From Ignavibacteriota bacterium (GTDB lineage: Bacteria > Bacteroidota > Ignavibacteria > Tepidaquicellales > OLB5), in NCBI GenBank assembly GCA_003820375.1, contig RPQH01000011.1:4783-68782 (forward strand): a stretch of 64,000 bases of DNA, in the 5' to 3' direction. Positions 14,251 through 61,282 of the stretch are shown one piece after another; positions within the stretch are counted from its first letter, which is position 1; every line of letters starts with the position of its first letter. A program made the position numbers and the translations under genes. A model generated the notes under the pieces. That model was not told the origin of the DNA. It worked only from the letters and a program-made list of their open reading frames with translations, and did no database searches.

Positions 14251-14302
14251 TTCAAGCCTCATTTTTTAAGTTAGGGGAAACAGCAATTTGAATATATTAT
14301 TA

Positions 14303-14330
14303 ATATTATATATTAAGCCTTTTAAGTCAA
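14303..14330 (-). promoter_or_regulatory. sigma70-type promoter for paralog 1
   Basis: The minus strand reads ATCATTGACTTAAA..TAATAT: TTGACT (14330-14325), a 16-bp spacer, then TAATAT (14308-14303). The same module recurs at 19992-20019. Confidence 0.6.
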
Positions 14331-14400
14331 TGATATTTCTTGTCTTTAACACGTTGTGATTTGTTTTCTCTCCTGTCTAACTTGTACTTGTGAAGGAAAG

Positions 14401-14464
14401 GCAATCTTTAATCTGCAATCTTTAATCTGCAATCTTTAATCTGCAATCTTTAATCTGCAATCTG
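14401..14464. repeat. 14-nt tandem array (GCAATCTTTAATCT, about 4.5 copies)
   Basis: Near-perfect direct repeats seen directly. They lie just downstream of the stop of paralog 2 in mRNA sense. The same vocabulary recurs at 59481-59555. Confidence 0.95.
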
Positions 14465-16267
14465 TTATTTAATCAATACCAGTTTCTTCACATCAGTAAA
14501 TTCATTGCATTCCAGTTTATAGAAATATAATCCTGAAGAATAATTCGTCCCATCCCATTCCACATTGTAACTTCCGGCATTTTGCTTTTCGTTTACTATT
14601 ACAGCCACTTCTCTTCCCAATGCATCGAATATTGTTAATTTCACATAATTGCTCATGGGCAATTGATAATTGATAATTGTTTTAGGATTGAATGGGTTGG
14701 GATAATTTTGTGAAAGCGAAAATTTGTCCGGTATATTATTGTTAATATTTTTCGTACCAATCATATTTGTCTGAAAGCATATATTTGGCAAATTTACCTG
14801 CACTGCTCCGGTTGTAAGATCTGTACATCCGCCTCCGTTTGGTAAATCTGAATGTTGATGAAAGATTTGCTGCCCGACAGGTGTGCTTAAAACTGTTGAA
14901 CTGGAAGCATTGCTTGAGTTGTTGAAACATATTTCGATTAACAGATTTGCGCCTGTATAAGTAAATGGAGTTGCAAGGTTAATAAACTGCCATCCTGTGC
15001 CCGGTATTGAATATGTTCCGCTATATACTTCTGTCCAGCCTGATGGTATAAATCCTGCAATTAATGTATAGGTTGTATTTTGCATCTTTATTGAGAAACC
15101 ATTCATTACTGCCTGCGGATATGCTTCTGATACATTGAATCCGATTTTCTGGATTGTTGTGCCTGCACCAAATCCAATTTGAGCAGCAGTGTATATCATC
15201 TGAGTTCTTGCATCCATATACCCTGTTTCAAATGGATAGGCTGCTGTAGTTACACCAGGACCCCAGCATGCCTGGTAAACTCCGGAAGGAAGTACATATA
15301 CTGTTGTTGTTACTGTATCGTCTGCTCTGTATTGATCTGAAGCTAAGGATGATATGACTTTAAGTATCTTTGTTCCTGTATCAGTTGGTGTCCAGCTAAA
15401 TGATACTGAATCTACTGCACCTGCATTTAAGTTCGTTGCGATTGTTGATACCTGTGTTCCATTCACTACAAATGAAATTGGAATACCTGTCTCGTTTGAT
15501 GTTCCAAAGTTTTTTATCTTTGCTTTAATAGTTTTTTGTACTCCCGTATTGAAGTATGCCGGTAAGCTAAGGAATGGACCAACACAAATGTTATGAGCAA
15601 AGTTTTGTACTATTCCATCGGCTCTTATACCAATAGCTCTGTAGCCGGAGTAGATGGTGTTCTGTATTGGCACCCAGGTTCCGGTTGTTTGAGTGTAAAA
15701 ATATCCGGCCCTTAATGGTGTTGTTGTAGATTGATCACGACCAATTAAATGTGATGTATAATATGTAACGTTATAGCTGATACCTGCATATACACTGCCT
15801 GAAGTAATGGGAGGAATACCTGTTATGCCGGCAAAATCGAACCATGTCACCGTTGGGAATGTCTGTACACCAACTGCTGTTTGATTTGGAATTATAGCAA
15901 GTAAGTTACCCGGGGAGCCGCCTGGTCCTGTATTATCATATACTACAATATCAAAGGTCCAGTCAGCTGAGCCGCTTGTTCCTTTTGTCAATGCAAAACA
16001 CAATTGATTTATTGTGTAGGGATAAGATTGCGGTGTCATCAGCATGACCCATTTATATATACTATAATAACCACTAATCCATCCACATCCGCCCTCAAAT
16101 GTATTATCATCATACACTAATCCTCCAACACATTGAGCTCCTAATATGCCTTCTGTACCTTTTTCAATATGAGTTTTATTGATTTCATCAAAAGGCAATG
16201 AATATTGTGAATAAATTAAGCAAGTAAAAATTGTTAAAGCAAAATAGAGTAGAATAAACTTTTTCAT
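14465..16267 (-). CDS. T9SS-sorted surface protein, tandem paralog 2
   Basis: 600 aa with the same domain order as 12460-14250. Signal peptide MKKFILLYFALTIF. T9SS CTD ..GLYFYKLECNEFTDVKKLVLIK. Confidence 0.85.
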   Translation of the reverse strand: MKKFILLYFALTIFTCLIYSQYSLPFDEINKTHIEKGTEGILGAQCVGGLVYDDNTFEGGCGWISGYYSIYKWVMLMTPQSYPYTINQLCFALTKGTSGSADWTFDIVVYDNTGPGGSPGNLLAIIPNQTAVGVQTFPTVTWFDFAGITGIPPITSGSVYAGISYNVTYYTSHLIGRDQSTTTPLRAGYFYTQTTGTWVPIQNTIYSGYRAIGIRADGIVQNFAHNICVGPFLSLPAYFNTGVQKTIKAKIKNFGTSNETGIPISFVVNGTQVSTIATNLNAGAVDSVSFSWTPTDTGTKILKVISSLASDQYRADDTVTTTVYVLPSGVYQACWGPGVTTAAYPFETGYMDARTQMIYTAAQIGFGAGTTIQKIGFNVSEAYPQAVMNGFSIKMQNTTYTLIAGFIPSGWTEVYSGTYSIPGTGWQFINLATPFTYTGANLLIEICFNNSSNASSSTVLSTPVGQQIFHQHSDLPNGGGCTDLTTGAVQVNLPNICFQTNMIGTKNINNNIPDKFSLSQNYPNPFNPKTIINYQLPMSNYVKLTIFDALGREVAVIVNEKQNAGSYNVEWDGTNYSSGLYFYKLECNEFTDVKKLVLIK

Positions 16268-16297
16268 GACTTACCTAATATATTATTTTTAAAAAAT

Positions 16298-18079
16298 TTA
16301 TTTAATTAGTACTAACTTCTTTACATCACTAAATCCTTCGCATTCCAGTTTATAGAAATATAACCCTGAAGAATAATTCGTCCCATCCCACTCTACACTG
16401 TAACTTCCGGCATTTTGCTTTTCGTTTACTAATACAGCTGCGTTTTTTCCTAATGCATCAAATATTGTCAGCTTAACATAATTGCTAATTGGCAATTGAT
16501 AACTGATAATTGTTTTTGGATTGAATGGATTGGGATAATTTTGTGAAAGTGAAAATTCTTTTGGTATTTCACTTTGTATTTTCCTGTTATTTCCATTCCA
16601 GATAATTAAACAAATATTCGGGCGTGTTGTTTGGGTACTGCCTGTTGTAATATTTATACACCCGTCTCCGGATGAAAGGTCTTCGTGTTTGTGATATACT
16701 TTTCCGGAAAACGTTGTTGATGCTACAGTTGAATTTTGTGAATATCCTCCATTATTAAAGCATACTTCTATTAATAGATTTGTACCATTATAAACAAATG
16801 GAGTATCAAGAGTTATCCACCTCCATCCTGTGCCGGGTACAGTATAAGTACTGCTGTAAACTATATGCCAACCTGTTTGAGGAAATCCGGAAACCGTAGT
16901 ATTAGTCGTATTCTGCATCTTAATTTTGAAACCGGACATTGTAGCAGGAGCTGCAGTCATAACATCAAAAGCAATATTAGTAATAATTGCAGGCCTGCCG
17001 TCATTTCCAATTTCATTTGCAAGATAGAGCATATCGGTTTTTGAATCCATGTAAAATGTATAGAAGGGATATCCGGCAGGTAATGCGCCGGTACCTATAC
17101 AGCTGTTTATTGCTCCCTGTGAATTCACCGTAACATTTATTGAAGCTGTATCATTGCCTCTGAATTGGTCGTTTGATAAAGCTGCAACTACTTTCAGGTT
17201 GTTGTTTCCAGCTTCTGCAGGTGTCCAATTAAAGCTTACGGAATCAACAGCACCTGTATTTAAATTTTTGTTTACGGTAAATAAATGAATTCCGTTAACG
17301 AAGAATTTAAACGGTACACCTGTTTCATTTGAAGTGCCCATGTTGGTTACTTTAGCTTTAATTACAGATTGAGTACCTAATGTAAATAATTCCGGAATAG
17401 AAAGAAAAGGACCTGCTTTAATATTATGAGAATAAATGACATCTGCAGTATCAACCCTGATACCAACAGCTCTATTTGAAGGAAAGAATGATTGAATTGT
17501 ACCCCATGTGTTCTGTATATATCCATATCCAAGTCTTGCAGGAGTTGTTGGGCTTTCATCAGCAGCAAGGTATCGCCCTGACATTGTTGAAGGATTCCAG
17601 CTAAGACCCACGTAATAACTTCCCGAATTTAATACAGGTATAGATATAATTTGATCAAAATCAAACCATGTTACCGCCGGCCAGACTGGAACATTTACTG
17701 CTGTTTGATTGACAATGCCGGTTATTAAGTTACCTGGTCTTCCATTTGTTCCTGTTGTATCATAAACTTCAATATCAAATATCCAATCCGCTCCTGAATT
17801 TCCTGTAAGCGCAAAACAAATCTTACCGATTTTATATGGGTATGATGAAGGAGTAAATTTTAAAACCCATTTTCCAATACCATAACCGGGATTCCAGCCG
17901 TAACCGTTTTCCCATGTGTTGTCATCATATACTATGCCGCCAACACATTGAGCACCAATTAATCCTTCGTTACCCTTAATAAAAGGCACATTTCCATTTG
18001 TAATTTGAGCAGCGGGTTGAGAATATATTATGCTAGTAAAGACTAATAATGCAAAAATAAGTAAAATTAGTTTTTTCAT
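16298..18079 (-). CDS. T9SS-sorted surface protein, tandem paralog 3
   Basis: 593 aa paralog. The intergenic gap to its neighbours is 30-34 nt, which suggests an operon. GAGGT lies upstream of the ATG. Confidence 0.85.
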   Translation of the reverse strand: MKKLILLIFALLVFTSIIYSQPAAQITNGNVPFIKGNEGLIGAQCVGGIVYDDNTWENGYGWNPGYGIGKWVLKFTPSSYPYKIGKICFALTGNSGADWIFDIEVYDTTGTNGRPGNLITGIVNQTAVNVPVWPAVTWFDFDQIISIPVLNSGSYYVGLSWNPSTMSGRYLAADESPTTPARLGYGYIQNTWGTIQSFFPSNRAVGIRVDTADVIYSHNIKAGPFLSIPELFTLGTQSVIKAKVTNMGTSNETGVPFKFFVNGIHLFTVNKNLNTGAVDSVSFNWTPAEAGNNNLKVVAALSNDQFRGNDTASINVTVNSQGAINSCIGTGALPAGYPFYTFYMDSKTDMLYLANEIGNDGRPAIITNIAFDVMTAAPATMSGFKIKMQNTTNTTVSGFPQTGWHIVYSSTYTVPGTGWRWITLDTPFVYNGTNLLIEVCFNNGGYSQNSTVASTTFSGKVYHKHEDLSSGDGCINITTGSTQTTRPNICLIIWNGNNRKIQSEIPKEFSLSQNYPNPFNPKTIISYQLPISNYVKLTIFDALGKNAAVLVNEKQNAGSYSVEWDGTNYSSGLYFYKLECEGFSDVKKLVLIK

Positions 18080-18113
18080 TTCTTACCTCATAGAAAAAAA
18101 ATTACTTAAAATT

Positions 18114-19940
18114 TTATTTTAATAACATAATTTTCTTTACATCGGTAAAACCATCACATTCTATTTTTAGAAAATATAACCCGCTCGCAAAATTCGTGCC
18201 ATCCCACTCCACATCGTAAGTGCCGGGTGTTTGCTTTTCATTTACAAGTGCGGCAACAACTTTTCCCAAAGCATCATAAATAACAAGCTTTACTTCACTG
18301 CTAACCGGCAATTGATAACTGATAATTGTTTTAGGATTGAATGGATTGGGATAATTTTGTGAAAGTGAAAATTCTTTTGGTATTTCATTTTGTGTCCCAT
18401 TCACTCCGACCATACATGGTGGATTAGGATTTAAATTTGTCGGGTAACCCTGGAAACATATATTTGGTAATGTAGCCTGAACAGTACCGGCTGTAATCAT
18501 AACACAACCATCTCCCGCAGAAATATCCTGGTGGTTGTGAAAAACTCTATTAGGATTTGATGTTGACGCTATTGTAGTACTTGATGTATAACTTGAATTG
18601 TTGAAGCAAATTTCAATTAAAAGATTGCAATTTGAATTATAATAAAACGGAGTTGATAAATATATCCATTGCAACCCGGTTGATGAAACAGAATAAGTTC
18701 CGCTATAAACTTCAGTCCACCCTGTTGAAACAAATCCGGTCAATGATGTCAAAGGTGTATTCTGCATTTTTATCTTAAAACCATTCATAACCTGTGGAGC
18801 TGCTGACAAAACTGTAAAGCCAATTTTAGTTATCACACTTAAATTAACTCCTATTTCACTTGCCAGGTAAAGAAAATCTGTTCTTGAATCCATATAAAAT
18901 GTATAAAAAGGATATTGAACTGCAATAGAACCTGTACCGTAACAAGGACTATAATAACCGGGAGGATATACATGCACAATTGTAGATACTGTATCATTAG
19001 CTCTGTATTCATCAGTTACCAATGCAGAAACAATTTTTAAAATAAAGTTTCCCGTATCTGCAGGCGTCCAGTTAAAAGCTACTGAATCTACTGCATTAGC
19101 ATTCAGGGATGTTATGATTAAGCTATTAACCTGAGTACCATTAACAAAGAATTTCATCGGGATATTTGATTCATTGGATGTACCGAGATTTTTTACTTTT
19201 GCTTTTATTACTTTCTGTACATTTACATTATACAATCCCGGTAAACTAAGGAACGGACCTGTTGCAATATTATGAGTATAAGTAACACCTGTACCATCAC
19301 ACCTTACACCGATAGCTTTATAGTTTGGGTAATATGTTTGAATACCTGCCCATGCACTTTGAATATATCCGTAGCCGGGTCTTAATATTGTTGTAGGGCT
19401 TTCATCAGCAGCAATATAATGAGATGGCATGGTTGCCGGGTCATAACTGATACCTACATAATAACTCTGCCCTGTTGTTAATGGAGGGACACCGGTTAAG
19501 CCGGTAAAATCAAACCATGTTACATTAGGCCATATCGGTACACCTGTTGCAGTCTGATTTGCAATAGTATGAACTAATGTTCCCGGACCGCCGCCTGTTC
19601 CGGTTGCATCATAAAATACAATATCAAAAGTAAAATTAGCTGAACCTGCGGCTACTCTCGTAAGAGCTAAGCAAACCTGATTGATTGTGAATGGGTAATC
19701 AGCCGGGGTCATTTTCATAGCCCATTTACCAATACCGTAACCGGCATTCCATCCATACCCGTTTTCCCATGTGTTGTCATCATAAACTAATCCGCCAACA
19801 CATTGAGCCCCGAGCATTCCTTCATTGCCTTTTATAAAAGGTGTATTATCATTTGCAAGCTGAGATGCAGGTTGAGAATATAAAGTATTTAAAGAAACTA
19901 TAGCTGAGAAGAGTAAAGACAGTAAAATGAGCTTTTTCAT
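18114..19940 (-). CDS. T9SS-sorted surface protein, tandem paralog 4 (first gene of the 3-gene operon)
   Basis: 608 aa paralog. GAGGTAAAAAATG ribosome-binding context. T9SS CTD ..GLYFLKIECDGFTDVKKIMLLK. Confidence 0.85.
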   Translation of the reverse strand: MKKLILLSLLFSAIVSLNTLYSQPASQLANDNTPFIKGNEGMLGAQCVGGLVYDDNTWENGYGWNAGYGIGKWAMKMTPADYPFTINQVCLALTRVAAGSANFTFDIVFYDATGTGGGPGTLVHTIANQTATGVPIWPNVTWFDFTGLTGVPPLTTGQSYYVGISYDPATMPSHYIAADESPTTILRPGYGYIQSAWAGIQTYYPNYKAIGVRCDGTGVTYTHNIATGPFLSLPGLYNVNVQKVIKAKVKNLGTSNESNIPMKFFVNGTQVNSLIITSLNANAVDSVAFNWTPADTGNFILKIVSALVTDEYRANDTVSTIVHVYPPGYYSPCYGTGSIAVQYPFYTFYMDSRTDFLYLASEIGVNLSVITKIGFTVLSAAPQVMNGFKIKMQNTPLTSLTGFVSTGWTEVYSGTYSVSSTGLQWIYLSTPFYYNSNCNLLIEICFNNSSYTSSTTIASTSNPNRVFHNHQDISAGDGCVMITAGTVQATLPNICFQGYPTNLNPNPPCMVGVNGTQNEIPKEFSLSQNYPNPFNPKTIISYQLPVSSEVKLVIYDALGKVVAALVNEKQTPGTYDVEWDGTNFASGLYFLKIECDGFTDVKKIMLLK

Positions 19941-20019: not shown

Positions 20020-20594
20020 TGATAAATCGTGTCTTAAAATACACATGCATTTGTTCTTAATTAAATTCATTTCCATTCTCATTGTTTTCCCTGCATTCCC
20101 ACCATATATCATTCCCCTGACTGATGCAGTCAGGGGAATGACATGTGTTAGGTAAGCGGGGAATGACACGGGGTGACATACAGTAAAAATCAGAGTTGGG
20201 TTCAAAACAGTGCGGAGATGGGTTCAAGTTGTGCCGGAGTTGGGGTCAAGTTAGTATCCAGTTGGGTTATCGTTTTTCAAAAACAGGGGTTAACTCATTG
20301 CAGTATAAGGAGATAACGCCGTCAGAGATGTGAGATTTTTGATTTAAAATTGGCGATTTCGAGCCGGAATCACCAATTTTTCATCATAATAAAACTTCAC
20401 TATATCATTAACCATTATCGTTATGGGAAAATTTTGGCAGCAAATTATTGTCGCTGATGTTGGAGAGTTAAAGTAATACTTTAAGGATTATCCGGCTCAT
20501 TTCAGGACACACCCCGTCTTATCAATTCCGTAGAACGGAATTGATAATCCACCCCTCTCGAGAGGGGAATCCTTTGATTTTTAAGCTCTAAATA

Positions 20595-20636: not shown

Positions 20637-20645
20637 ACAAAAAAC

Positions 20646-20674
20646 TTGACAATTAGTAATTACTATATTAAATT
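20646..20674 (+). promoter_or_regulatory. conserved orphan promoter of element copy A
   Basis: TTGACA (20646-20651), a 17-bp spacer ending CTATAT, then TAAATT (20669-20674). The same arrangement occurs at 40874-40902 and 59130-59158. Confidence 0.7.
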
Positions 20675-20854
20675 ATATAGTGATGCTTATATATCAGTAT
20701 AAGCATAAATAATCGTTCTTTGACAAAATCGTAAATTAGAAAGTTATGTCGTTTGTTAATGTAAGGAATGGAGTCACGAAAATAGTTAGATTTTACACAG
20801 ATGAAAAAAATATGTATTGAAAAATGCACTAAAATAATTTTATCAGGAAATCAT

Positions 20855-28822: not shown

Positions 28823-28891
28823 ATAACGAAACTCCTTCATTATAAATTGTATTTAATATAATAAATCATCATTTTTGATTAGATGAATTAA

Positions 28892-28955
28892 TCAAATTTA
28901 TCAGATTCATCAGATTTATCAGATTCGCAATTGGCAATTCGCAATTCGAAATTGA
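28892..28955 (+). repeat. 9-nt (CAGATTYAT) then 7-nt (CAATTSG) tandem arrays upstream of the tRNA
   Basis: TCAAATTTATCAGATTCATCAGATTTATCAGATTCGCAATTGGCAATTCGCAATTCGAAATTG. Confidence 0.9.
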
Positions 28956-28959
28956 TTAT

Positions 28960-29031
28960 GCTCCCATGGTGTAATGGACAGCACGACAGGTTCCGGTCCT
29001 GTTGGTGAGGGTTCGAATCCTTCTGGGAGTA
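28960..29031 (+). tRNA. tRNA-Arg (anticodon CCG)
   Basis: Manual cloverleaf. Acceptor GCTCCCA/TGGGAGT (G1-U72 wobble). D-stem GTGT/GCAC with a GG loop. Anticodon stem ACAGG/CCTGT, loop TTCCGGT. T-arm GAGGG-TTCGAAT-CCTTC. Discriminator A. No encoded CCA. Confidence 0.8.
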
Positions 29032-29038
29032 CTAATAC

Positions 29039-29145
29039 AATTACGAATGACGAATGACGAGTTACGAATGAAGAATTACGAATTACGAATGACGAATTAC
29101 GAATGACGAATGACGAATTACGAATGACGAATTACGAATGACGAG
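29039..29145. repeat. heptamer array (ACGAATK)n, about 15 units
   Basis: TTACGAATGACGAATGACGAGTTACGAATGAAGAATTACGAATTACGAATG... It abuts the stop codon of the minus-strand gene 29146-29811. Its units are the reverse complement of the CAATTCG units left of the tRNA. Confidence 0.95.
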
Positions 29146-29811
29146 TTAACCTTTCAACCTGTAACCTGCAGCCACTCTGTGCCTGTCAACCCAATAAGCC
29201 CACAATACAAGCAGCCATTGTGTTAATCCAAGATAAGCAATAGATTTAACATCGGGCGGCGGCGGACCCATGATATTTCCAAAATAAATAATTACAAGAA
29301 AAACTATCAAAGCCCAAAAGGCATATGTGCCAATTTTATCTTTTGCAGATGTTGCAGAGATATAAAACCAAACTCCAAGGATGAAAATAACTGACTCAAG
29401 TATAATAGCAATAACCGGTGAATTCCACAATCCAAAGCCGACATTTGGTCCGGATGTAAGAAGAGGCAGGTCAGGGCGGTGTACAAACAGGTCAAGCACC
29501 CAGTGGCTTAATACCAATAAACCTACAATCAATGAATTCTTTACATTTCTTTTAATAAAGAAATAAATACCTCCAATAATAATACTCCATGCGAGTACAA
29601 AAATTAAGCTGTGGCTGTAGGGATAATCCGAAAAATTTAATGGTGTCATTATAGTATCACCCGGATTTATGACAACATGTTCAATTCCGAATAAGAGCAG
29701 CAATGGCCAAAGCAAATCAAGCCATTGAGAAGCAAGGAACAATGTTCCTAACGAAACCTGCGGAGCCGGTTTTTTGCCGGCTAATCCTGCACCAAAATGA
29801 CCTATAAACAT
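29146..29811 (-). CDS. multi-pass membrane protein, unknown function
   Basis: 221 aa and hydrophobic, with N-terminus MFIGHFGAGLAGKK. The ORFs that overlap it are short. Confidence 0.65.
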   Translation of the reverse strand: MFIGHFGAGLAGKKPAPQVSLGTLFLASQWLDLLWPLLLLFGIEHVVINPGDTIMTPLNFSDYPYSHSLIFVLAWSIIIGGIYFFIKRNVKNSLIVGLLVLSHWVLDLFVHRPDLPLLTSGPNVGFGLWNSPVIAIILESVIFILGVWFYISATSAKDKIGTYAFWALIVFLVIIYFGNIMGPPPPDVKSIAYLGLTQWLLVLWAYWVDRHRVAAGYRLKG

Positions 29812-34866: not shown

Positions 34867-36654
34867 ATGAAATTAATACAATCGTGTATAACTCTTCTTG
34901 TAATTCTTGCTGCCGGAAGCCCTGTTTTATCACAAAGAACTATTGATGATATAACGACAGTTGCTGAGTTTAAACAGTATGCCCGTTTAATGGCACCAAA
35001 TGAAAATGCTTTTGTGGCAGTGCAAAGGATTGCAAAAGAATATCTGGACAGTAAAGACTGGCAGGGTGCTGCACAGGTATTTGCCGCGTACAGCAAGCTA
35101 TTTCCTAATATGAATGAGCGTTTTGCAAAGATAGATTCGCTTTTGAAAGCATCTCCGCAAAATTTAATACTTACTAATCTAAGGGTAATAAATTCAAGTG
35201 ATGATGAATATTTTCCTGTAATTACAATAGATGAGAACCGTATATATTTTACCGGAAGCAGCAGAAAAGATAATATCGGCGGCGAAGATATCTTTTACTC
35301 CGACAGGATAAACGAGAAATGGACTAAGGCAAAGTTATTACCGGCCCCCTTCAGCACATATGAAAATGATGCTGTTAACAGTGTATCTGCAGACGGGATT
35401 ATTCTCGTTGTCTTTGGTACGTATAAAGGTGCAATCGGCGAAGGGGATAACTTTTATTCCGAAAGAACCGCTTCGGGATGGTCTGCAATAAAACCGTTTC
35501 AAGTTCCGGTTAATTCCAAGTACTGGGATTGTGACGGGTTTCTTTCTGCCGATGGCAAAGCATTCTTTTTTGTAAGTGACAGACCCGGGGGAACCGGTGA
35601 GTTCAACAGGAGCGGTTATCCTTTCCATGGTGATATACAAGGTAACACTGATATTTATGTTTGCGTCAAAAATGATTCAGGCTGGTCTGCTCCAATCAAT
35701 CTTGGCACTTATGTTAACACGCCTTATTCAGAACGCTCGCCTTTCCTGCATCCAGATGGAAGGACATTGTATTTTTCATCTGACGGCTTTTACGGACTTG
35801 GTGAGCTTGATGTATTTAAGACTGTCAGGTTAAATGATACCTCATGGACAGAATGGGGTAAACCGGTAAATCTCGGTAAAGATATTAATACAAGCGGAAC
35901 GGATATTGCATATAAGATTTCAACAAAAGGTGAACTCGCTTATTTTTCAACAAATTATTCCGGCGGTGAAGGCGGGTATGACATTTATTCGATAACACTT
36001 CCGCCTGAAGCAAGACCGCAAAGAAATGTGGTTGCCGTTAAAGGAAAAGTAACCGATGAAAATGATAATCCGCTTGATGCAAATATCAATTGGGCGGATA
36101 TTTCTTCTAACACAAATGTCGGAGCTTTAAAATCGGACCCTGTAACCGGCGATTATATCATCGTACTTCCTGTAGGGAAAGTTTACAGCTATTTTGCAGA
36201 TAAGCAGGGTTATTACTCGGTTTCAAATGAAGTGAATCTTTCGGATAAAACCGAATACTCGGAAATGAATGTTGATATAAAAATGATTGCTGTTAAATCA
36301 CTTGAGGAAACAGCAATAAAGCTAAATAATATTTATTTTGATTTTGATAAATATGACCTGAAGCCTGAATCATTCAGTGAACTGGAGAGAGTGTATAAAT
36401 TTCTCACAGATAATCCTGAAATTAAAGTAGAGATATCTGCACATACAGATGCAATAGGCAGCGAAGAATATAATATGGGACTTTCACAAAAGCGTGCACA
36501 AAGTGTTGTTGATTATCTTATCAGCATTGGTATCAATCAGGACAGGTTGATTGCAAAAGGTTACGGTAAAAGCCAGCCTGTAGCAGATAATGGTACCGAA
36601 GAAGGCAGAGCATTAAACAGAAGAGTGGAAATGAAAATAGTTAAGAGTCTATAG
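34867..36654 (+). CDS. OmpA-family protein with TolB-like repeats (paralog of the preceding gene)
   Basis: 595 aa, collinear with 32982-34793. Signal peptide. ..SAHTDAIGSEEYN..NRRVEMKI. Confidence 0.85.
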   Translation: MKLIQSCITLLVILAAGSPVLSQRTIDDITTVAEFKQYARLMAPNENAFVAVQRIAKEYLDSKDWQGAAQVFAAYSKLFPNMNERFAKIDSLLKASPQNLILTNLRVINSSDDEYFPVITIDENRIYFTGSSRKDNIGGEDIFYSDRINEKWTKAKLLPAPFSTYENDAVNSVSADGIILVVFGTYKGAIGEGDNFYSERTASGWSAIKPFQVPVNSKYWDCDGFLSADGKAFFFVSDRPGGTGEFNRSGYPFHGDIQGNTDIYVCVKNDSGWSAPINLGTYVNTPYSERSPFLHPDGRTLYFSSDGFYGLGELDVFKTVRLNDTSWTEWGKPVNLGKDINTSGTDIAYKISTKGELAYFSTNYSGGEGGYDIYSITLPPEARPQRNVVAVKGKVTDENDNPLDANINWADISSNTNVGALKSDPVTGDYIIVLPVGKVYSYFADKQGYYSVSNEVNLSDKTEYSEMNVDIKMIAVKSLEETAIKLNNIYFDFDKYDLKPESFSELERVYKFLTDNPEIKVEISAHTDAIGSEEYNMGLSQKRAQSVVDYLISIGINQDRLIAKGYGKSQPVADNGTEEGRALNRRVEMKIVKSL

Positions 36655-36786
36655 AGTTCAGAGAGTTTAGAGAGTATAGAGAGTTCAGAGAGTTTGGAGA
36701 GTTCGGAGAGTTCGGAGGGTTCAGAGAGTTCAGAGAGTTCAGAGAGTTCAGAGGGTTCAGAGAGTTCGGAGAGTTCGGAGAGTTTA
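36653..36786 (+). repeat. 9-nt tandem array (GAGAGTTYR), about 15 units, starting in the stop codon
   Basis: TAGAGTTCAGAGAGTTTAGAGAGTATAGAGAGTTCAGAGAGTTTGGAGAGTTCGGAGAGTTCGG... Confidence 0.95.
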
Positions 36787-36882: not shown

Positions 36883-37161
36883 ATGATGGGTGATATAGAA
36901 AAAAGAATTGAGAAGTGGAGAAGTTCTAAACAACCTGTTTCAAAAAAAGATCTTGAACCAGTGCTTAATTATTATTTTCCGGGTTGGAAATCAGGCAAAG
37001 GCACTTCTCATTTATATAAACTATATCACGAGAAGTTAATTAATAATACTGATTATTTTTATGGTCATTTTACTATTCCGGTTACAGGGGGTAACAAAGT
37101 GAAATATATTTACATTAAACAGCTTATAAAAGCAATTGAAATAATTGAAACAAAATTCTAA
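36883..37161 (+). CDS. hicA: HicA-like mRNA-interferase toxin (N-terminally extended)
   Basis: 92 aa. GKGTSHLYKLYH..FTIPVTGGNKVKYIYIKQLIKAI resembles the HicA GSH..IP.H pattern. It sits immediately upstream of a clear HicB-like gene. Confidence 0.55.
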   Translation: MMGDIEKRIEKWRSSKQPVSKKDLEPVLNYYFPGWKSGKGTSHLYKLYHEKLINNTDYFYGHFTIPVTGGNKVKYIYIKQLIKAIEIIETKF

Positions 37162-37165
37162 TCAT

Positions 37166-37588
37166 ATGAAAAACAATATAACACATTATATGATACTTGA
37201 TTACGAGGTAGTTCATAGAAGATTAACAAAAGAAGAAGGCGGCGGTTATATAGCATATATTCCCCAGTTAGGAAGAAATACATTTCAGGCGGATGGCGAA
37301 ACTCTTGAAGAAGCTTTAGCAAATTTGGAAATTGTGAAAAAGGAATTATTCAAAGACTTTATTAAAAAAGGTTATCAAATTCCGGAACCGGAAAGCCAAG
37401 AACAGGAATACAGCGGGAAATTTATAGTTCGTGTTCCTAAATTTCTGCATAAGGAACTTGTTAGTGAAGCAAAGAAAAACAACAGCAGCTTGAATCAATA
37501 TGTTCTAACACTGTTATCAAAAAATTTATATGTATCGGATGGAAGCACAAAATATTATGTGAAAAAATCCTCAAAACGAAAAAATTAG
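37166..37588 (+). CDS. hicB: HicB-family antitoxin with a C-terminal RHH-like DNA-binding tail
   Basis: EGGGYIAYIPQLGRNTFQADGETLEEALANLE is the HicB N-domain pattern. The C-terminus GKFIVRVPKFLHKELVSEAKKNNSSLNQYVLTLLSK is RHH-like. The ATG at 37166 lies 4 nt after the hicA stop, whereas the track uses a TTG at 37145. Confidence 0.75.
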   Translation: MKNNITHYMILDYEVVHRRLTKEEGGGYIAYIPQLGRNTFQADGETLEEALANLEIVKKELFKDFIKKGYQIPEPESQEQEYSGKFIVRVPKFLHKELVSEAKKNNSSLNQYVLTLLSKNLYVSDGSTKYYVKKSSKRKN

Positions 37589-40161: not shown

Positions 40162-40292
40162 CTCCTTCCCAAGTTGTACTTGGGAAGGAAATTGAGTTTG
40201 AAATTGTATTTCAATCTTTGATCTCCAATGCTGCTGATGTGTAAGTTCAACTTACAGTACATTTTACTTCCCAAGTACAACTTGGGAAGGAG
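40162..40292. repeat. MITE-like unit bounded by a 26-bp inverted repeat
   Basis: CTCCTTCCCAAGTTGTACTTGGGAAG (40162-40187) and its reverse complement at 40267-40292. Each arm is itself a hairpin. A related word, AACTTGTACTTGTGAAGG, occurs near 14375. Confidence 0.75.
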
Positions 40293-40411
40293 GAAAAGCA
40301 ACTGCCAAAGGCAGTCAAGCCAACAACGGGTAACTAATCAAACCCGTCACTGTCTCAAAAATGCCGCCCGCCTGTACGGGCAGACATGTGGATTTTCTCC
40401 ACAAAAAACCG

Positions 40412-41047
40412 GAGTTGGGTTCAAAACAGTGCTAAGTTAGGTTCAAGTTGTGTCGGAGTTGGGTTCAAGTTGGCATCAAGTTGGGTCATCGTTTTTGGAA
40501 AACAGGGGTTAACTCATTGCAGTATAAGGAGATAACGCCATCAAAAATATGAGATTTTCGATTAAAGATTTGCGATTTTGAGCCGGAAACGGCATTTTTC
40601 TAGCAAAATAAAACTTCACTATATCATTAACCATTATCGCTATGGGAAAAATTTGGTAGCAGATAATTGTCGCTGATGTTGGAGGAGTTAAAGTATTACT
40701 TGAAGGTATTTCCGGTTTATTTTATTCACATCCCGGTCTAATCGCATATTGATTCTTCTTACTTCTAACCTCTGATATATAACTTCTTATAATTGTAAAT
40801 CCTGCTAAAATTGATGGGATTGCCACGCTTTGCTCGCAATTGTGCTTAACATCCAACTATTTTCACCAAAAACTTGACAATAAGCAATTACTATATTAAT
40901 TTAATGTAGTAGTGATTATCATCACTCAGTAACGTTCTTTGATAAAATAGAGATGAATTTATACATGTCGTAATATTGTATGAAAATACTGCTCACTAAT
41001 TTGGTTAGATTTTGGAAGTTTGAAAAAAATATGTACTGAAAAATACC
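40412..41047 (+). repeat. ORF-free modular element, copy B
   Basis: Same order of modules as copy A. Islands identical to A include GGGGTTAACTCATTGCAGTATAAGGAGATAACGCC (40505-40539) and AAAACTTCACTATATCATTAACCATTATCG. Confidence 0.85.
40874..40902 (+). promoter_or_regulatory. conserved orphan promoter of element copy B
   Basis: TTGACA (40874-40879), 17 bp ending CTATAT, TAATTT (40897-40902). Confidence 0.7.
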
Positions 41048-41050
41048 TAA

Positions 41051-41172
41051 AGAGTCAGGAGTTCAAGAGTCTGGAGTCGGGAGTCTGAGAGTTGAGAATC
41101 TAAGAGTTTGAAAGTCAGAGTTATAAGTTCGGGAGTTGAGAGCTATAAGTTTTAAAGTTGCGGGTTATGAGC
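41051..41172 (+). repeat. degenerate 7-9-nt array (GAGTYNR words)
   Basis: GAGTCAGGAGTTCAAGAGTCTGGAGTCGGGAGTCTGAGAGTTGAGAATCTAAGAGTTTGAAAGTCAGAG... Confidence 0.8.
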
Positions 41173-55454: not shown

Positions 55455-56873
55455 ATGAAAACAAATAAAATAATATTTCTGCTTTTGTTTATTCCCGTTA
55501 CGTTTTTTTCCCAGTTTTACACAGCAGATACACTCATTACCAATCTCAGCTATCCGGTTGCTTTTGCATTTCTGCCTGACGGGAATGTAATGATTACACT
55601 AAAAGAAGGACCGGTGAAAATATATACTCTGAATAACACAATTGTTTCGCAGGTCTGGAATTTTACGGATTCATGTGTCTCTGACGGCGAAAGGGGTGTG
55701 CTTGGTATTTGCGCAGACCCGCAATTTACGGTTAACAGGTATATCTATATTTATTATGTTCATGCTATACCGCCTTTACCAACAGAACCGCAATGGCTTA
55801 GAGTTGTCAGGTTAACATTGAATGCTAATAATACAGGAGGAAATCCTTTTATTGTTTTTAATCACCCGGTAGAAGTTATTGGATGCTGTCATGTTGGGGG
55901 TAATGTCCATTTTGGACATGACGGGAAACTGTATCTTACACTTGGTGAAACAAATAACCAGCCCGCAGCACAATCAAAAGTTACACCGCTTGGAAAAATA
56001 TTGAGAATGAATTCGAACGGTACGGCACCAACAGATAATCCTTTCTATGATGACGGCAATCCGAATTCGGGAAATGATGACAGGATTTGGTGCATGGGAT
56101 TAAGAAACAGCTTTGATTTTTGCTTCAGTCCCATTAATGATTCACTGTATGCAACTGAAAATGGATTAATTACTGCTGATGAAGTTAACTATATACGTAA
56201 AGGTAAAAACTACGGCTGGCCAATTTGCGAAGGTTACTGCAATCCTCCTGTAGATTCATTTACTCAGCCAATGCACACCTGGTCACCGACTATTGCTGTT
56301 ACGGGAATAATGGTCTACCAGGGAACGCAGTATCCTGAATTGAACGGGAGATTGTTAGTTGCAGATAATAAAAACGGAAGAATATATAAATGTGAGTTGG
56401 GCAGGGCACCTGCTTATGATACTATAATTTCACGTACACAAATAATTGAGCTGGGACCGCTGACATCTTTAATGCAGGGTACTGATGGATTCATTTATGT
56501 TTTAAACGGCGGTTATGAGCCAAGTGGAAAATTACACAGAATAAGACCATCAAGCATTGGAGTAAACAATAATCAACAAGAGGTACCCGGTGGATTTGTT
56601 CTTTATCAGAATTATCCGAATCCGTTCAATCCAAAAACTATTATCAATTACCAATTGACAATGAGCAATTATGTGATGTTAACAATCTATGATTTAATAG
56701 GAAGAGAAGTTGCTGTGCTCGTTAGCCAAAAACAAAATGAAGGCAATTATAAAGTTGAATGGGATGCATCAAATTATCCAAGCGGAGTTTATTTCTATAA
56801 GCTAACTGTCCGGCAAGCCGGATCTTCGACAGGAAATTTCTCTGCGGAAAAAAAGATGGTCCTGTTGAAATGA
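55455..56873 (+). CDS. PQQ-dependent sugar dehydrogenase-like T9SS cargo, paralog 4
   Basis: I prefer the ATG at 55455 (MKTNKIIFLLLFIPVTFFSQ signal peptide), because the track start at 55365 runs through the terminator. The CTD has an RQAGSSTGN insertion. Confidence 0.85.
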   Translation: MKTNKIIFLLLFIPVTFFSQFYTADTLITNLSYPVAFAFLPDGNVMITLKEGPVKIYTLNNTIVSQVWNFTDSCVSDGERGVLGICADPQFTVNRYIYIYYVHAIPPLPTEPQWLRVVRLTLNANNTGGNPFIVFNHPVEVIGCCHVGGNVHFGHDGKLYLTLGETNNQPAAQSKVTPLGKILRMNSNGTAPTDNPFYDDGNPNSGNDDRIWCMGLRNSFDFCFSPINDSLYATENGLITADEVNYIRKGKNYGWPICEGYCNPPVDSFTQPMHTWSPTIAVTGIMVYQGTQYPELNGRLLVADNKNGRIYKCELGRAPAYDTIISRTQIIELGPLTSLMQGTDGFIYVLNGGYEPSGKLHRIRPSSIGVNNNQQEVPGGFVLYQNYPNPFNPKTIINYQLTMSNYVMLTIYDLIGREVAVLVSQKQNEGNYKVEWDASNYPSGVYFYKLTVRQAGSSTGNFSAEKKMVLLK

Positions 56874-57092
56874 GTGTATGGAGTGTGTAGATTATATGGA
56901 GTGCAGTAACCGTGTTACTGCTAATTAATTTGGAGCGTACCCGTCCTGTTTACAGGAGTAACCGCTTAACCCCCAGTACTTTTGCCGTTATATAATTCAT
57001 TAAATAAAGTACTCCCAATTATATTATTCAATAAATCAACAATTATTACTAATTTACTTTAATTTCATTGTAGATATTAAAGTAAAAAATTA

Positions 57093-58514
57093 TTGAATAA
57101 CATAACCGGTTTGAAAAATTCATTTCTGAAAAGATATGACTTGTGGATAATTTTTGCGGTGACCTTTGCGGTTTTTGCTTTTCTGAAAATTCACCAATTT
57201 TACTCGTTTACTTCAATTAATGCTGAAGTCATTGACTGGTATGAAACAACGGTCTGGAATTTTCTGCAGGGGAAGTTTTTTATTGCAAATCATAATATAC
57301 CTTTATTCTCTGAACATTTTTCTCCTTTTATAATATTTTTAGTGCCGTTTTATGCTTTGTTCCGTTCACCTTATGTATTTATTGTAATTCATGCTTTGGC
57401 TTGCGCTCTTCCTGTTATCCCGCTTTATCTTTTAGCAGAAAAATATTTTACTTACCGGTTTGCTCCGGTTGCTTTTTGTCTTGCTTATTTTTTTTCAAGG
57501 ATAGTCAATTTAGGATTGATGTTTGACTTCCATATAGAAATATTTTATCCGCTTCTGTTTTTATCTGCTCTTTTGTATATTGAAAAAGTCAGGTGGAATT
57601 TAGTTTATGTATTCTTAATACTGGCTTTAATGATTAAAGAAGATGCCTCAATTGCAGTTATTGCAATTGGTATATACATTTTCTTCAGCAAAGAAAAACA
57701 AAAAGGGATTATAATTTCATTAATTGGTTTGACCTGGCTTCTTCTTACTACTCAGGTGATAATTCCATATTACCGTGCCGGTATATACGGATGGGGTTAC
57801 GGATTTTTAAGTTACTGGTCTGAATATGGAAATACACAAAAAGATATTTTTCTGAATATGTTCAACCCGGTAAAACATATACAGGTTCTTTTCACCGGTG
57901 CGAAGATGCAAAGTACTTTTAACTTTTTTTCCGTTTATCTTTTCCTGCCTTTCTTTGCTCCGCTTGCTTTTTTACTTCTTGTTTTGCCGCAGTGGTTCCT
58001 TTTATATTCTTCCGGCAATACTATGATGTTCAATGTTGTAAATTATTACGGTTATCTTTCATTGCCTTTTTTATTTTATACCTGTATTCTTGGATTTAAG
58101 AATATTGAAAAGAAAGTTCACAAAAAATATTTTATCATATCCATTTTGATATTGCTGGTTATTGTGAATGCCGCTAACTCAAGGTATTACAAATTATTTT
58201 TTCAGGATTCTATGAAGAAAAAAGCCAGGTACGAGGTAGTCGAAAAAATTATTGAAAACATACCGCCTCAATCGAGCATTACCGCACAGGCAAACCTGGT
58301 GGGGCATATACCTCCAGGAGAAAACCGCGTATTCTTTCCGCAGAATATAAATGAATCGGAGTTAATACTTCTGGACCTTGAAGGTGCTAAATGGCCTTTA
58401 TCGGATTCAGATTACAAACAGTGTGTTGATACACTTCTGAATAATATTAATTTCAGGGTAATTGAAAATAATTCATCGTTTCTATACATAGAAAATTTAC
58501 AAGTAAAGAAATAA
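57093..58514 (+). CDS. polytopic membrane protein (DUF2079-like, possible GT-C-type glycosyltransferase)
   Basis: 473 aa with many TM segments and a soluble C-terminal domain. TTG start as in the track, with no nearby in-frame ATG. Confidence 0.6.
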   Translation: MNNITGLKNSFLKRYDLWIIFAVTFAVFAFLKIHQFYSFTSINAEVIDWYETTVWNFLQGKFFIANHNIPLFSEHFSPFIIFLVPFYALFRSPYVFIVIHALACALPVIPLYLLAEKYFTYRFAPVAFCLAYFFSRIVNLGLMFDFHIEIFYPLLFLSALLYIEKVRWNLVYVFLILALMIKEDASIAVIAIGIYIFFSKEKQKGIIISLIGLTWLLLTTQVIIPYYRAGIYGWGYGFLSYWSEYGNTQKDIFLNMFNPVKHIQVLFTGAKMQSTFNFFSVYLFLPFFAPLAFLLLVLPQWFLLYSSGNTMMFNVVNYYGYLSLPFLFYTCILGFKNIEKKVHKKYFIISILILLVIVNAANSRYYKLFFQDSMKKKARYEVVEKIIENIPPQSSITAQANLVGHIPPGENRVFFPQNINESELILLDLEGAKWPLSDSDYKQCVDTLLNNINFRVIENNSSFLYIENLQVKK

Positions 58515-58517
58515 ATT

Positions 58518-58686
58518 GAGTGTGTAGAGTGTGTGGAGTGAGTGGAGTGTGTAGAGTGTGTAGAGTGTGTGGAGTGTGTGGAGTGTGTGGAGTGTGTGGA
58601 GTGTGTGTAGTGTGTAGAATGTGTAGAGTGTGTAGAATGTGTAGAGTGCATTGAGTGTGTAGGTACGTTGAGTGTGTGGAGTTTGT
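58518..58686 (+). repeat. 9-nt tandem array (GAGTGTGTR), about 18 units
   Basis: TAAATTGAGTGTGTAGAGTGTGTGGAGTGAGTGGAGTGTGTAGAGTGTGTAGAGTGTGTGGAGTGTGTGG... Confidence 0.95.
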
Positions 58687-58693
58687 AGTCAGC

Positions 58694-59310
58694 GGTCACT
58701 CAGTGGTCACTCAGCGGGCAGTTTATGGGCACTCAGTGGGCACTTTACGGGCACTTTATGGGCAGGTTTTGGGCAGGAGTTTTTAAAAAATGACTGTAAC
58801 TTATTGCAGTATAAAGAGATAACTCCTGCCCAAAGTGCTAAAAATGGCTCGAAATTTGGCGATTATAAGCAGGAAATGAGGTTTTTGAAAAACCGCTCCT
58901 GCCCACTGATTTTCGGGAAAAAATAAACAAAATAACCGAATCATCGTCGCTATAATTTAAGAGTTAAAGTAATACTTCAAGGGTTTCCCGGCTCGTTTAA
59001 ACTCACGCCCCCTTAATCACTTCGAAGAGGGAACTGCTTACTATATTAATCCTCTAATCTGATAAATTTGATAAATCTGATGAATTTGATAAATTATTCT
59101 ATACATTCGAAACTATTTTTTGCTAAAACTTGACAAGAGGCAATCTCTATATTAATTTTATATAGTAGTGAATGCTGATGCAATTTATTATCCGTTGTCG
59201 TACTTTGCTAATATCGAAATCATGATTATCAGGTCGTAAATTTAATTTATCGGGAGCTTAGCTACAGGGCCGGATATGGGAATAAAAAAGTATTAAAAAT
59301 GAAAATTTTT
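58694..59310 (+). repeat. ORF-free modular element, copy C (diverged)
   Basis: Eight GGKCAS words at exact 11-bp steps (58694 to 58771). Then CTGTAACTTATTGCAGTATAAAGAGATAAC, GAGTTAAAGTAATACTTCAAGG..CCGGCTC, a spacer containing 9-mers, and the promoter module. Confidence 0.8.
59130..59158 (+). promoter_or_regulatory. conserved orphan promoter of element copy C
   Basis: TTGACA (59130-59135), 17 bp ending CTATAT, TAATTT (59153-59158). Confidence 0.7.
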
Positions 59311-59336
59311 CCATTTGTAGGAGTTTTCCTACAAAT

Positions 59337-59440
59337 CAATTAGCAATTTGCAATGAGCAATGGAGAGTTCAGAGAGTTTGGAGAGTTCAGAGAGTTTGGA
59401 GAGTTCAGAGAGTTAAGAGAGTTTAGAGTGTTTGGAGAGT
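59337..59440 (+). repeat. heptamer (CAATNNG) then 9-nt (GAGAGTTYR) tandem arrays
   Basis: CAATTAGCAATTTGCAATGAGCAATGGAGAGTTCAGAGAGTTTGGAGAGTTCAGAGAGTTTGG... Confidence 0.95.
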
Positions 59441-59480
59441 ATATCTTTTTCCCCACTAGTCCTACAGGAATCTTGTGGTA

Positions 59481-59555
59481 TAATCTTTAATCTATAATCT
59501 TTAATCTGTAATCTTTAATCTGTAATCTGTAATCTTTAATCTGTAATCTTTAATT
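59481..59555 (+). repeat. 7-nt tandem array (TAATCTK)
   Basis: TAATCTTTAATCTATAATCTTTAATCTGTAATCTTTAATCTGTAATCTGTAATC... Confidence 0.95.
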
Positions 59556-59620
59556 CATCAATAATCACTTGTTTAAGGTAAAGTTTTTTTAAATACATTT
59601 CGGTATATTTGTTCTTCATT

Positions 59621-61282
59621 ATGGAAAAAAATTATAAGAAAATACTTGTTACTTCGGCACTTACGTATGCCAATGGATATACTCATTTAGGACATATTGC
59701 AGGCTCATTGCTTCCTGCTGATATATATGTACGTTTCCAGAGATTATTGGGACGTGATGTATTATATATTTGCGGCTCCGATGAACATGGTACTGCTATT
59801 GAAATGTCAGCAATAAAAGAAAACATTACGCCTAAAGAGATAATCGATAAATATCATAAGTCAAATAAAAAAGCTTATTATGACCTTGGAATGTCTTTTG
59901 ATATATATTCACGTACATCGACGGATGTTCACAGAGCAACATCACAGGATTTTTTCATGAACCTGTATAATAAGGACCTGTTATATACTAAAACCGAGAA
60001 ACAGCTTTATTCTGAAAAAGAAAAACGTTTTCTTGCAGACAGGTTTGTAATCGGTACATGCCCTGTATGCGGATTTGAAGAAGCAACCGGCGATGAATGT
60101 GAGAATTGCGGAAGCTCTCTCACTCCTCTTGAATTGAAAAATCCAAGATCAAAAATTACAGGTGATACACCTGTAGTTAAGGAATCCAACCATTTCTATT
60201 TTCCGCTGAGCAAGTACCAGCAATCGCTGGAAACATGGCAGGGAACAAAAAATAACTGGAAACCGAATGTAATAAACTATTGTGCGGGTTGGTTTAAAAA
60301 GGGACTTCAGGACAGAGCCATTACACGCGACCTGGATTGGGGTGTACCCGTTCCTGTTGAAGGTTATGACGAAAAAGTTTTGTATGTGTGGTTTGATGCT
60401 CCCATTGGTTATATATCGGCAACAAAAGAATTGTTCATTGAAAGAAACAATCCTGACGGATGGAAAGATTATTGGTATAATGGAGAGACAAAGCTGGTGC
60501 ATTTCCTGGGAAAAGATAATATCATATTTCATGCAATCTTTTTCCCGGCAATGCTGATGGCACACGGTGATTTTGTTCTGGCAGATAATGTCCCGGCAAA
60601 TGAATTCATGAATCTTGAAGGAAGCAAGCTGTCTAAAAGAAGAGGGAATATAATTTATGTTAAAGATGCAGTTGAAAAAATTAATCCCGATACAATCAGG
60701 TACACAATAGCATCTAACATGCCCGAGAACCGCGACACGGATTTTTACTGGAGCGACCTCCAGGCAAAGAACAATAATGAGCTTGGAGCTATACTGGGCA
60801 ATTTTATAAACAGGACGTTCGTTTTTGCAAATAAATATTTTGATGGAACAATCCCGCCTCAAAATGAATTACAGGATATAGACACAAATATTAAGCTAAG
60901 GCTTAACAGCGGTTTAGAAAAGATTGAAGCAGATTACGAAAATTATAAATTCAAAGATGCTGTCACAGATTCTATGAATATTGTTCGTGATGCCAATAAA
61001 TATTTTAATGATACAGAACCGTGGAAAGCTGTAAAGGAAAATAAAGAAAGATGTGAGACAATAATAAATATATGTCTTCAGCTTGTTCATTCTTTTGCAG
61101 TAATATTTCATCCTGTTTTGCCCTTCAGCACTGAGAAAATCCTTCACATGCTGAATAAAGGGAAAGAGGACCTGAGCTGGGATAAAGCAGGTGATTTTGT
61201 GCTTAAGCCGGGCCACAGGTTAAATCAACCTGAAATACTATTTAATAAAATTGAAGATTCAGAAATTGAAAAACTTTCGTAA
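59621..61282 (+). CDS. metG: methionyl-tRNA synthetase
   Basis: HIGH-region NGYTHLGH. Zn knuckles CPVCG..CENCG. KMSKS-like KLSKRRGN. I prefer the ATG at 59621 (MEKNYKKILVT) over the track TTG at 59609. Confidence 0.95.
   Translation: MEKNYKKILVTSALTYANGYTHLGHIAGSLLPADIYVRFQRLLGRDVLYICGSDEHGTAIEMSAIKENITPKEIIDKYHKSNKKAYYDLGMSFDIYSRTSTDVHRATSQDFFMNLYNKDLLYTKTEKQLYSEKEKRFLADRFVIGTCPVCGFEEATGDECENCGSSLTPLELKNPRSKITGDTPVVKESNHFYFPLSKYQQSLETWQGTKNNWKPNVINYCAGWFKKGLQDRAITRDLDWGVPVPVEGYDEKVLYVWFDAPIGYISATKELFIERNNPDGWKDYWYNGETKLVHFLGKDNIIFHAIFFPAMLMAHGDFVLADNVPANEFMNLEGSKLSKRRGNIIYVKDAVEKINPDTIRYTIASNMPENRDTDFYWSDLQAKNNNELGAILGNFINRTFVFANKYFDGTIPPQNELQDIDTNIKLRLNSGLEKIEADYENYKFKDAVTDSMNIVRDANKYFNDTEPWKAVKENKERCETIINICLQLVHSFAVIFHPVLPFSTEKILHMLNKGKEDLSWDKAGDFVLKPGHRLNQPEILFNKIEDSEIEKLS

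Follow-up and report, generated by a model that had tools for sequence, protein, structure and literature searches.

Three conserved stretches in a 64-kb window of DNA (the window being the whole stretch of 64,000 nucleotides that was analysed), here termed copies A, B and C, belong to a dispersed element that comprises two subfamilies and is present in at least 42 copies; this wider family was overlooked in the original prediction made on this DNA. The copies, including A, B and C, occupy at least 42 distinct sites with unrelated flanks. Type 1 (copies A and B) carries an array of seven units of GTTGGGTTCAA and type 2 (copy C) an array of eight units. Going by sequence, the finding is best described as an interspersed element that is new and restricted to one lineage, and whose putative binding array is unusually regular and lies at one side only. 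In our judgement the chances are about even that copies A, B and C represent a mobile element that is specific to this lineage, non-coding and probably non-autonomous, with a left end that serves as a cooperative platform for a recombinase or DNA-binding protein.

The window represents chromosomal DNA from the MAG of an uncultured member of the Ignavibacteria, with housekeeping genes and many genes for proteins with T9SS sorting tails. Its MetRS was identical to a protein of an NCBI 'Ignavibacteriae bacterium' MAG and to that of a JGI contig (sample 3300027722). A scan of metagenome contigs with the conserved island of the element returned 49 stretches, and all but one chance match came from two assemblies of the same organism. 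Two conserved blocks were used as exact patterns to scan the GTDB representative genomes, yielding 0 matches and 4 chance matches inside coding sequence, an IMG/VR scan gave chance matches of pattern length only, and distant blastn searches of plasmids and phages gave no match to the element. The element was also absent from ~70 kb of syntenic DNA of five relatives (75–87 % MetRS identity) in an nhmmer profile search. GSDH and metG were adjacent, 100–200 bp apart, in four relatives (loci L066, L068, L069 and L070), while in the window (56873–59621) a DUF2079 membrane-protein gene (57093–58514), tandem repeats and copy C sit between them. The relative at locus L067 had 7–9-bp tandem repeats upstream of metG without the element.

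Genes neighbouring the copies were housekeeping or T9SS genes. No consistent orientation relative to these genes was detected; copies were often found between convergent genes, and 14 of 19 type-1 copies pointed toward the 3' end of a convergent gene. A replication-strand bias was rejected, with 16 of 34 copies on the G-rich strand and no consistent orientation relative to GC skew. Intergenic DNA comprised 27 % of the sampled loci (ORF cut-off 100 aa), and many intergenic regions were filled with tandem repeats of 7–9-bp units, with 69 TRF rows in the window (for example at 58518–58688, 59363–59440, 59481–59554, 36653–36784, 29039–29148, 12140–12226 and 14401–14464). A tandem repeat was present within 45 bp of the right end of the element in 12 of 28 copies as compared to 13 % of random intergenic positions. 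The flanks (window 20107–20180 and 40262–40300; upstream at L022, L031 and L040) consisted of a mosaic of other small repeat families, including GGGAATGAC hairpins, CCTTCCCAAGTTGTACTTGGGAAGG hairpins and ~50-bp tandem units with ATCCCTTCGGGAT. Other features of the window included four tandem paralogues of ~600 aa on the minus strand (12460–19940), of which the one that was scanned (18114–19940) had CARDB and a T9SS sorting tail; a tRNA-Arg(CCG) gene at 28960–29032 (region 28887–29148) with upstream repeats of ATTTATCAG and ATTCGCA and 15 downstream copies of AATGACG; a match to the DUF805b RNA motif above the Rfam gathering score at 5–39; and an ORF for a HicB-family antitoxin at 37145–37588.

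Copies A, B and C aligned over ~650 bp that were non-coding, without a conserved ORF. A variability profile identified two conserved blocks, from −112 to about +200 and from about +340 to +547 relative to the island. The left block (~310 bp) comprised the array, a spacer, the island and a GAGTTAAAG block, while the right block (~200 bp) comprised a promoter-like block, a hairpin and a conserved A/U-rich stretch. These blocks were separated by a hypervariable linker of other small repeats, and beyond both ends the sequence was effectively random. For copy C, the conserved end of the left block was GTCGCT...GAGTTAAAGTAATACTTCAAGG (58948–58990, plus strand) and the hypervariable middle spanned 58995–59120 (strand not applicable), with column variability of 0.3–0.5, other small repeats and a 9-bp tandem repeat of AATTTGATA at 59056–59095. 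Profile searches detected 52 left-block and 44 right-block matches, with 43 of the 44 right blocks having a same-strand left block as partner; all unpaired blocks were at locus ends except for one truncated copy (L057). Two modules, a (CTTTGCGGT three times...GCGTGA) and b (GCCCGCCTGTACGGGCAG...TGTGGATTTTCTCCACA), were confined, within the sampled DNA, to the position immediately left of the array. Module b was located at window 40360–40408, and module a at L021, L022, L026, L028, L030 and other loci, in both subfamilies; these modules may be optional leftward extensions of the element.

The left end of copy C was formed by an array of eight 11-bp units with the pattern nnGG[G/T]CAnnnn (58692–58779, plus strand). 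The words were, in order, GGTCAC, GGTCAC, GGGCAG, GGGCAC, GGGCAC, GGGCAC, GGGCAG and GGGCAG, and started at 58694, 58705, 58716, 58727, 58738, 58749, 58760 and 58771, confirming the eight words at exact 11-bp steps of the original prediction. Autocorrelation was in agreement, with a lag-11 identity of 0.72 over 58690–58782, whereas the highest value that 2000 shuffles reached, whatever the lag, was 0.46, and TRF reported periods of 11, 22 and 33 at this array. Across the type-2 arrays (n=20), the 5-bp core positions varied by 0.04–0.09 and the 6-bp spacer positions by 0.17–0.27, a variability across copies that was 3–5 times lower in the word core than in the spacer. As the core is less variable than the spacer, this is the pattern expected of a protein that makes contact with the DNA helix along a single face; a low-varying 5-bp core once per helical turn would be a classic footprint of cooperative protein binding. 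The variant GGTCA was tolerated in direct and inverted words alike. Between array and island was a T5/A6 spacer of fixed length (GTTTTTAAAAAATGACTGTAACTT, 58780–58802, plus strand), followed by the island ATTGCAGTATAAAGAGATAAC (58803–58823, plus strand), which was the best-conserved block between subfamilies. The distance from the last GGG to TTGCAG was 33 bp (3×11) in 22 of 23 type-2 copies and 34 bp in 28 of 28 type-1 copies, such that the proposed register between array and island was borne out by a spacing fixed within each subfamily. A JGI gene call placed an 84-aa ORF without a Pfam match over the array and island of copy C (L001 2052–2306, window 58672–58926); this ORF is almost certainly spurious.

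Both type-1 copies in the window had seven 11-bp units on the plus strand. The copy A array (20195–20271) alternated strong GTTGGGTTCAA with weak units and was followed by the island ATTGCAGTATAAGGAGATAAC (20297–20317, plus strand), while the copy B array (40414–40490) ended in GTTGGGTCATC and was followed by its island at 40516–40536 (plus strand). Type-1 islands ended in ...TATAAGGAGATAACG and type-2 islands in ...TATAAAGAGATAACT. In copies A and B the dominant period was 22 (identity 0.59–0.61) and lag 11 was weaker (0.43–0.51) because strong and weak units alternate; the arrays reported for these copies are therefore real but have a main period of 22 rather than 11. Likewise, words differed by subfamily as described, but were not fully swapped as TGGG..C was common to both. 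The number of units was seven in 22 of 22 distinct type-1 arrays and eight in 19 of 20 type-2 arrays, with a 22-bp duplication in one type-2 array (L044) as the sole exception, and each unit position had its own conserved sequence across copies. This fixed unit number, the position-specific conservation and the retention of period and register despite the change of word indicate, in line with the original prediction, that the array is not slippage noise. The array was present in every copy and was never found without the element, and a search for family members without phased repeats detected none among the copies examined. In hybrid copies at L024, L033 and L062 (and partly L060), the array and island were of type 1 and the segment behind them was a different one, including the type-2-like GGCGATTATG..GGAAAT, indicating recombination or module exchange between copies.

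The right block of copy C contained a promoter-like block (59125–59160, plus strand) consisting of TTG (59130–59132), a 20-nt spacer and TAATTTTA. The pattern TTG-N20-TAnnTTTG was matched exactly in seven other copies and nearly in the rest, and was conserved in both subfamilies. This block is a candidate Bacteroidetes-type promoter, the sole conserved one in the element, from which transcription would exit via the right end. The block was directly followed, on the plus strand, by a hairpin (59165–59191), a conserved stretch GTCGTACTTTGCTAATATCGAAAT (59197–59220; consensus CGTTCTTTG..AATATCGAAAT in both subfamilies) and a 10-bp hairpin ATTTGTAGGA/TCCTACAAAT at the right end (59313–59336), which was also found in several type-2 copies and was replaced in others by a short tandem repeat. 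The corresponding right blocks, both on the plus strand, were at 20641–20834 in copy A (promoter block, hairpin ATGCTTATA/TATAAGCAT, conserved stretch and right end ...GAAAAATGCACTAAA) and at 40869–41052 in copy B (promoter block, hairpin AGTGAT/ATCACT and right end ...GAAAAATACCTAAAG). As the right-block hairpins were unalignable, each copy was folded separately; a hairpin followed the promoter block in all 36 copies that were folded, with pairing retained across at least five unrelated stem sequences and a mean z of −2.9. For the same reason RNAalifold gave no consensus for the right block. The stability of the whole right-block RNA was not above that of shuffled sequences (z +0.94 and −0.78), and Rfam returned nothing for the element at the gathering threshold and generic hairpin noise only at E ≤10. 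In one type-1 copy (L027), an inserted palindromic module of 24 nt, ATCCCAGAGGGATCCCTGTGGGAT, interrupted the stretch from the −7 box to the hairpin, ~30 nt past the promoter block.

Several other candidate features of the element were considered and rejected. For a sigma-54 promoter, inspected by eye, the TGGC...TTGC spacing was wrong in type 2 and the −24 box was poor in type 1. A G-quadruplex, also judged by eye, was dismissed as GGG recurs in type 1 at 22-nt intervals only. A minus-strand Rho-utilisation site had no identifiable promoter to supply it, no inverted repeats flanked the promoter block as for an invertible promoter, and the start codons of the small ORFs ATGTCGTAA and MKKICIEK... 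were not conserved.

The original prediction further held that the last word of the copy C array is mirrored in the core and could close a 9-bp stem around the island. The mirrored words are present, as CTCCTGCCC occurs in the 64-kb window only at 58823 and 58896, and GGGCAGGAG occurs at 58771 with one further, unrelated site at 1852. The inverted repeat is longer than was claimed, matching at 14 of 14 nt between 58768–58781 and 58821–58834. The first inverted word of copy C, CTCCTGCCCAA (58823–58833, minus strand), reads CTCCTGACC in most other type-2 copies, while the second inverted unit, CTCCTGCCCACTGA (58896–58909, minus strand; reverse complement TCAGTGGGCAGGAG), is kept in all type-2 copies. 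The inverted units located by a weight-matrix scan lay exclusively in type 2, at +20 and +93, and none was near the right end; the full unit at +93 was present in 17 of 17 type-2 copies, and no inverted unit was found anywhere in 21 type-1 copies. The mirrored word is therefore not part of a shared architecture, so that of the proposed conservation of periodicity and architecture the period and register stand and the mirrored word is confined to type 2.

A stem formed by the last word and its inverted copy, with the word co-evolving with its partner, could draw on the 14-nt inverted repeat of copy C, on the proportion of paired cells across type-2 copies (85 % and 91 % for the two proposed stems) and on a sub-threshold match to a generic Rfam hairpin (58767–58835). 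However, no pair was changed on both sides in 19 distinct type-2 copies (0 of 11 and 0 of 10 pairs for the two stems), and the observed values for pairing and covariation score were reached or exceeded by 500 of 500 shuffles, leaving the stem unsupported by the larger set of copies. The stem was perfect in 5 of 19 type-2 copies, uncompensated changes of the left arm were present in 7 of 19, and CTCCTGACC, the commonest right arm, produced a G.A mismatch in 12 of 19. GGTCAG, the reverse complement of the CTCCTGACC variant, is a legal form of the word, GGTCA being used in units 1 and 2, and variation in the right arm thus stays within the degeneracy of the word and does not track pairing. Type 1 has no equivalent beyond 6 bp. 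In copy A, GATAAC is present as the partner in a closing pair, but it starts at 20312 rather than 20311 and the match is limited to 6-bp GTTATC/GATAAC, which is broken in 4 of 22 type-1 arrays that read GGTCATC. There is no promoter upstream of the array, and RNAalifold of both strands of the left block found no conserved RNA fold, few compensatory pairs and disagreement between the type-1 and type-2 folds. A closing stem around the island, as RNA or as a DNA cruciform, was rejected as it showed no covariation and was not shared by type 1. The pairing interpretation is thus rejected and co-evolution of the word with a pairing partner must be seen as extremely improbable. Of the alternatives originally offered, the data agree best with a binding protein of altered specificity, an explanation that is plausible but unproven.

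The proposed mechanism treats the array as a docking platform at the DNA level, in which seven or eight copies of a 5-bp core lie one helical turn apart, which places all of them on one side of the duplex. Beside the conserved island, a sequence-specific protein would assemble cooperatively into a filament. This protein may be the recombinase or transposase of the element, or an accessory ribbon-helix-helix or winged-helix protein, and would be supplied in trans. The different words of the subfamilies would, most simply, match two related proteins, and the type-2 inverted words would be extra binding sites in the opposite orientation rather than an arm of a functional hairpin. The promoter of the right block would fire outward. 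A TnpB omega-RNA was rejected; outward transcription fits, but the folds were no better than shuffles, alifold gave no consensus and no tnpB was detected in 386 ORFs. A more specific proposal is that the element represents an undescribed class of bacterial transposable element, devoid of terminal inverted repeats and target duplications, with a filament-nucleating left array of 77–88 bp, an outward promoter and short RNA at the right and two matched, diverged recombinases; the RNA reading into flanking DNA could then even serve a partner protein, by analogy with the right-end RNAs of TnpB. We consider this distinctly unlikely.

Non-autonomous elements derived by deletion typically combine conserved ends and a variable middle. 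This layout, together with the many dispersed copies, the absence from relatives and the existence of subfamilies, points to a non-autonomous mobile element. Neither terminal inverted repeats nor target duplications were seen at the left and right junctions of 32 copies, and no empty site was seen at nucleotide resolution; mobility is consequently suggested by distribution only. A partner gene was sought by all-against-all clustering of 386 ORFs in ~570 kb, a part of the genome, which yielded only a superfamily with the T9SS tail and small housekeeping clusters (72 of the 386 ORFs clustered together, probably via the shared tail), and motif scans of the same ORFs detected neither a serine-recombinase signature nor a TnpB zinc ribbon. 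Three paralogous TrmB-type winged-helix regulators (42–51 % identity) were located near type-2 elements (L023 3512–4360, L050 6748–7512 and L061 913–1686), with the L061 gene starting ~190 bp from the array and transcribed divergently. These were rejected as partner candidates since their proximity was not significant given the density of the element and may be coincidence. Further points against the mobile-element reading are that the words are confined to one end, unlike most two-ended transposons, and that the well-kept promoter and compensated hairpin could mean that copies are selected at the level of the host as an RNA gene.

This latter possibility leads to the main rival, which is not mutually exclusive with a mobile element. 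The host might be maintaining the copies as a multicopy small-RNA gene or as a regulatory module, in which the array would act like an operator and be bound by a ParR-, omega- or MetJ-like regulator of the host; the right block would then make an RNA of ~150 nt, consisting of a 5' hairpin followed by an A/U-rich single strand, with dispersal being historical and the copies now functional. We regard this host-module explanation as rather unlikely. Conservation of the promoter block in both subfamilies (with TTG-N20-TAnnTTTG exact in seven copies), hairpin pairing maintained with at least five different stem sequences, the conserved CGTTCTTTG..AATATCGAAAT, the constant linkage of left and right blocks and the precedent of R1 parC for an 11-bp array as an operator are all as this explanation would have it. 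Against this, the array lies 330–400 bp upstream of the sole promoter candidate with terminator-like hairpins between, which is far for a bacterial operator, and two word classes would require two regulators. Moreover, the RNA was no stabler than shuffled sequences (z values as above), absence from five relatives indicates that the family is not an old conserved gene, and 14 of 19 type-1 copies face the 3' end of a convergent gene.

The array could alternatively be a neutral by-product, arising by tandem duplication once in each subfamily ancestor and inherited without function in a genome prone to short tandem repeats. The abundance of 7–9-bp tandem repeats in this genome, the TRF super-periods of 22 and 33 bp and the 22-bp duplication at L044 are compatible with such an origin, but the other tandem repeats of the genome have 7- or 9-bp periods and widely variable lengths, whereas unit number is fixed in 41 of 42 arrays, the core is 3–5 times less variable than the spacer and both subfamilies independently keep seven to eight units with a period of 11 bp and a register of 33/34 bp to the island. 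A neutral origin is accordingly improbable. Helically phased direct repeats beside an A/T tract, accompanied by inverted repeat copies and with parC as precedent, also resemble the iteron-type replication origin or partition centromere of a plasmid-like or satellite replicon that has been integrated and amplified. This is highly improbable given the presence of at least 42 chromosomal copies, with no rep, parM or parR gene adjoining any copy, no plasmid or phage match and inverted repeats in type 2 only.

If the mobile-element reading is true, the subfamilies form a natural experiment in the change of DNA-binding specificity, in which scaffold, period and register are the same and the word is different. 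They would also provide a ready pair of binding sites with which the recombinase or architectural protein of this uncultured lineage of Ignavibacteria could be identified. The element explains much of the repeat load of the genome and of its contig breaks, to which it is tied because many copies lie at contig ends. If the element is merely a lineage-specific selfish repeat, its value is for annotation, and the 650-bp blocks should not be called genes.

Known repeat families share only some of these features. Correia and ERIC elements are 100–200 bp in length and have terminal inverted repeats and target duplications. Like these repeats and MITEs, the present element is non-coding, high-copy, intergenic and lineage-specific and could fire transcription into its flanks; unlike Correia and ERIC elements it is ~650 bp, has no terminal inverted repeats or target duplications and carries a one-sided phased array. 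With respect to classical MITEs, the element is small, non-coding and dispersed (although ~650 bp is at the large end of the range) but lacks the junction features. Subterminal repeat arrays are known from the eukaryotic hAT and En/Spm transposons (PMC6188088), which likewise have many short words inside the end that bind transposase and are kept in non-autonomous derivatives. The words of these eukaryotic elements differ from those described here in varying in spacing and orientation and in being located at both ends, together with terminal inverted repeats.

The closest analogues appear to be R1 parC and the left end of the IS607 family, with membership of neither established. R1 parC consists of two sets of five direct repeats of 11 bp, and one ParR, a ribbon-helix-helix dimer, is bound per contiguous repeat (PMC2241845). 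The element resembles parC in its 11-bp direct-repeat period, its several contiguous units and the short, fixed adjoining spacer. It differs in that parC is a single locus with two five-repeat sets flanking the parMR promoter, while the element has at least 42 chromosomal copies, one set and no par genes. At the left end of IS1535, an IS607-family element, serine transposase forms a cooperative filament that is nucleated on four helically phased direct repeats of 9 bp, with ~10 bp per protein unit, and the element lacks terminal inverted repeats and target duplications (PMC6188088). The ends of IS1535 are asymmetric, with five motifs at the left and two at the right (PMC6188088). Compared with the four to five 9-bp units of IS1535, the present element has seven to eight units of 11 bp, and no tnpA or tnpB was found for it in 386 ORFs (~570 kb, a part of the genome). 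Inverted motifs in the IS607 family are near the other end, whereas the inverted words of type 2 lie 55–125 bp inside and type 1 has none. Nevertheless, the element is like this family in that helically phased short direct repeats start at the left boundary of every copy and in that terminal inverted repeats and target duplications are lacking. By this analogy, the left end of the IS607 family would be the closest documented mechanism for the array described here.
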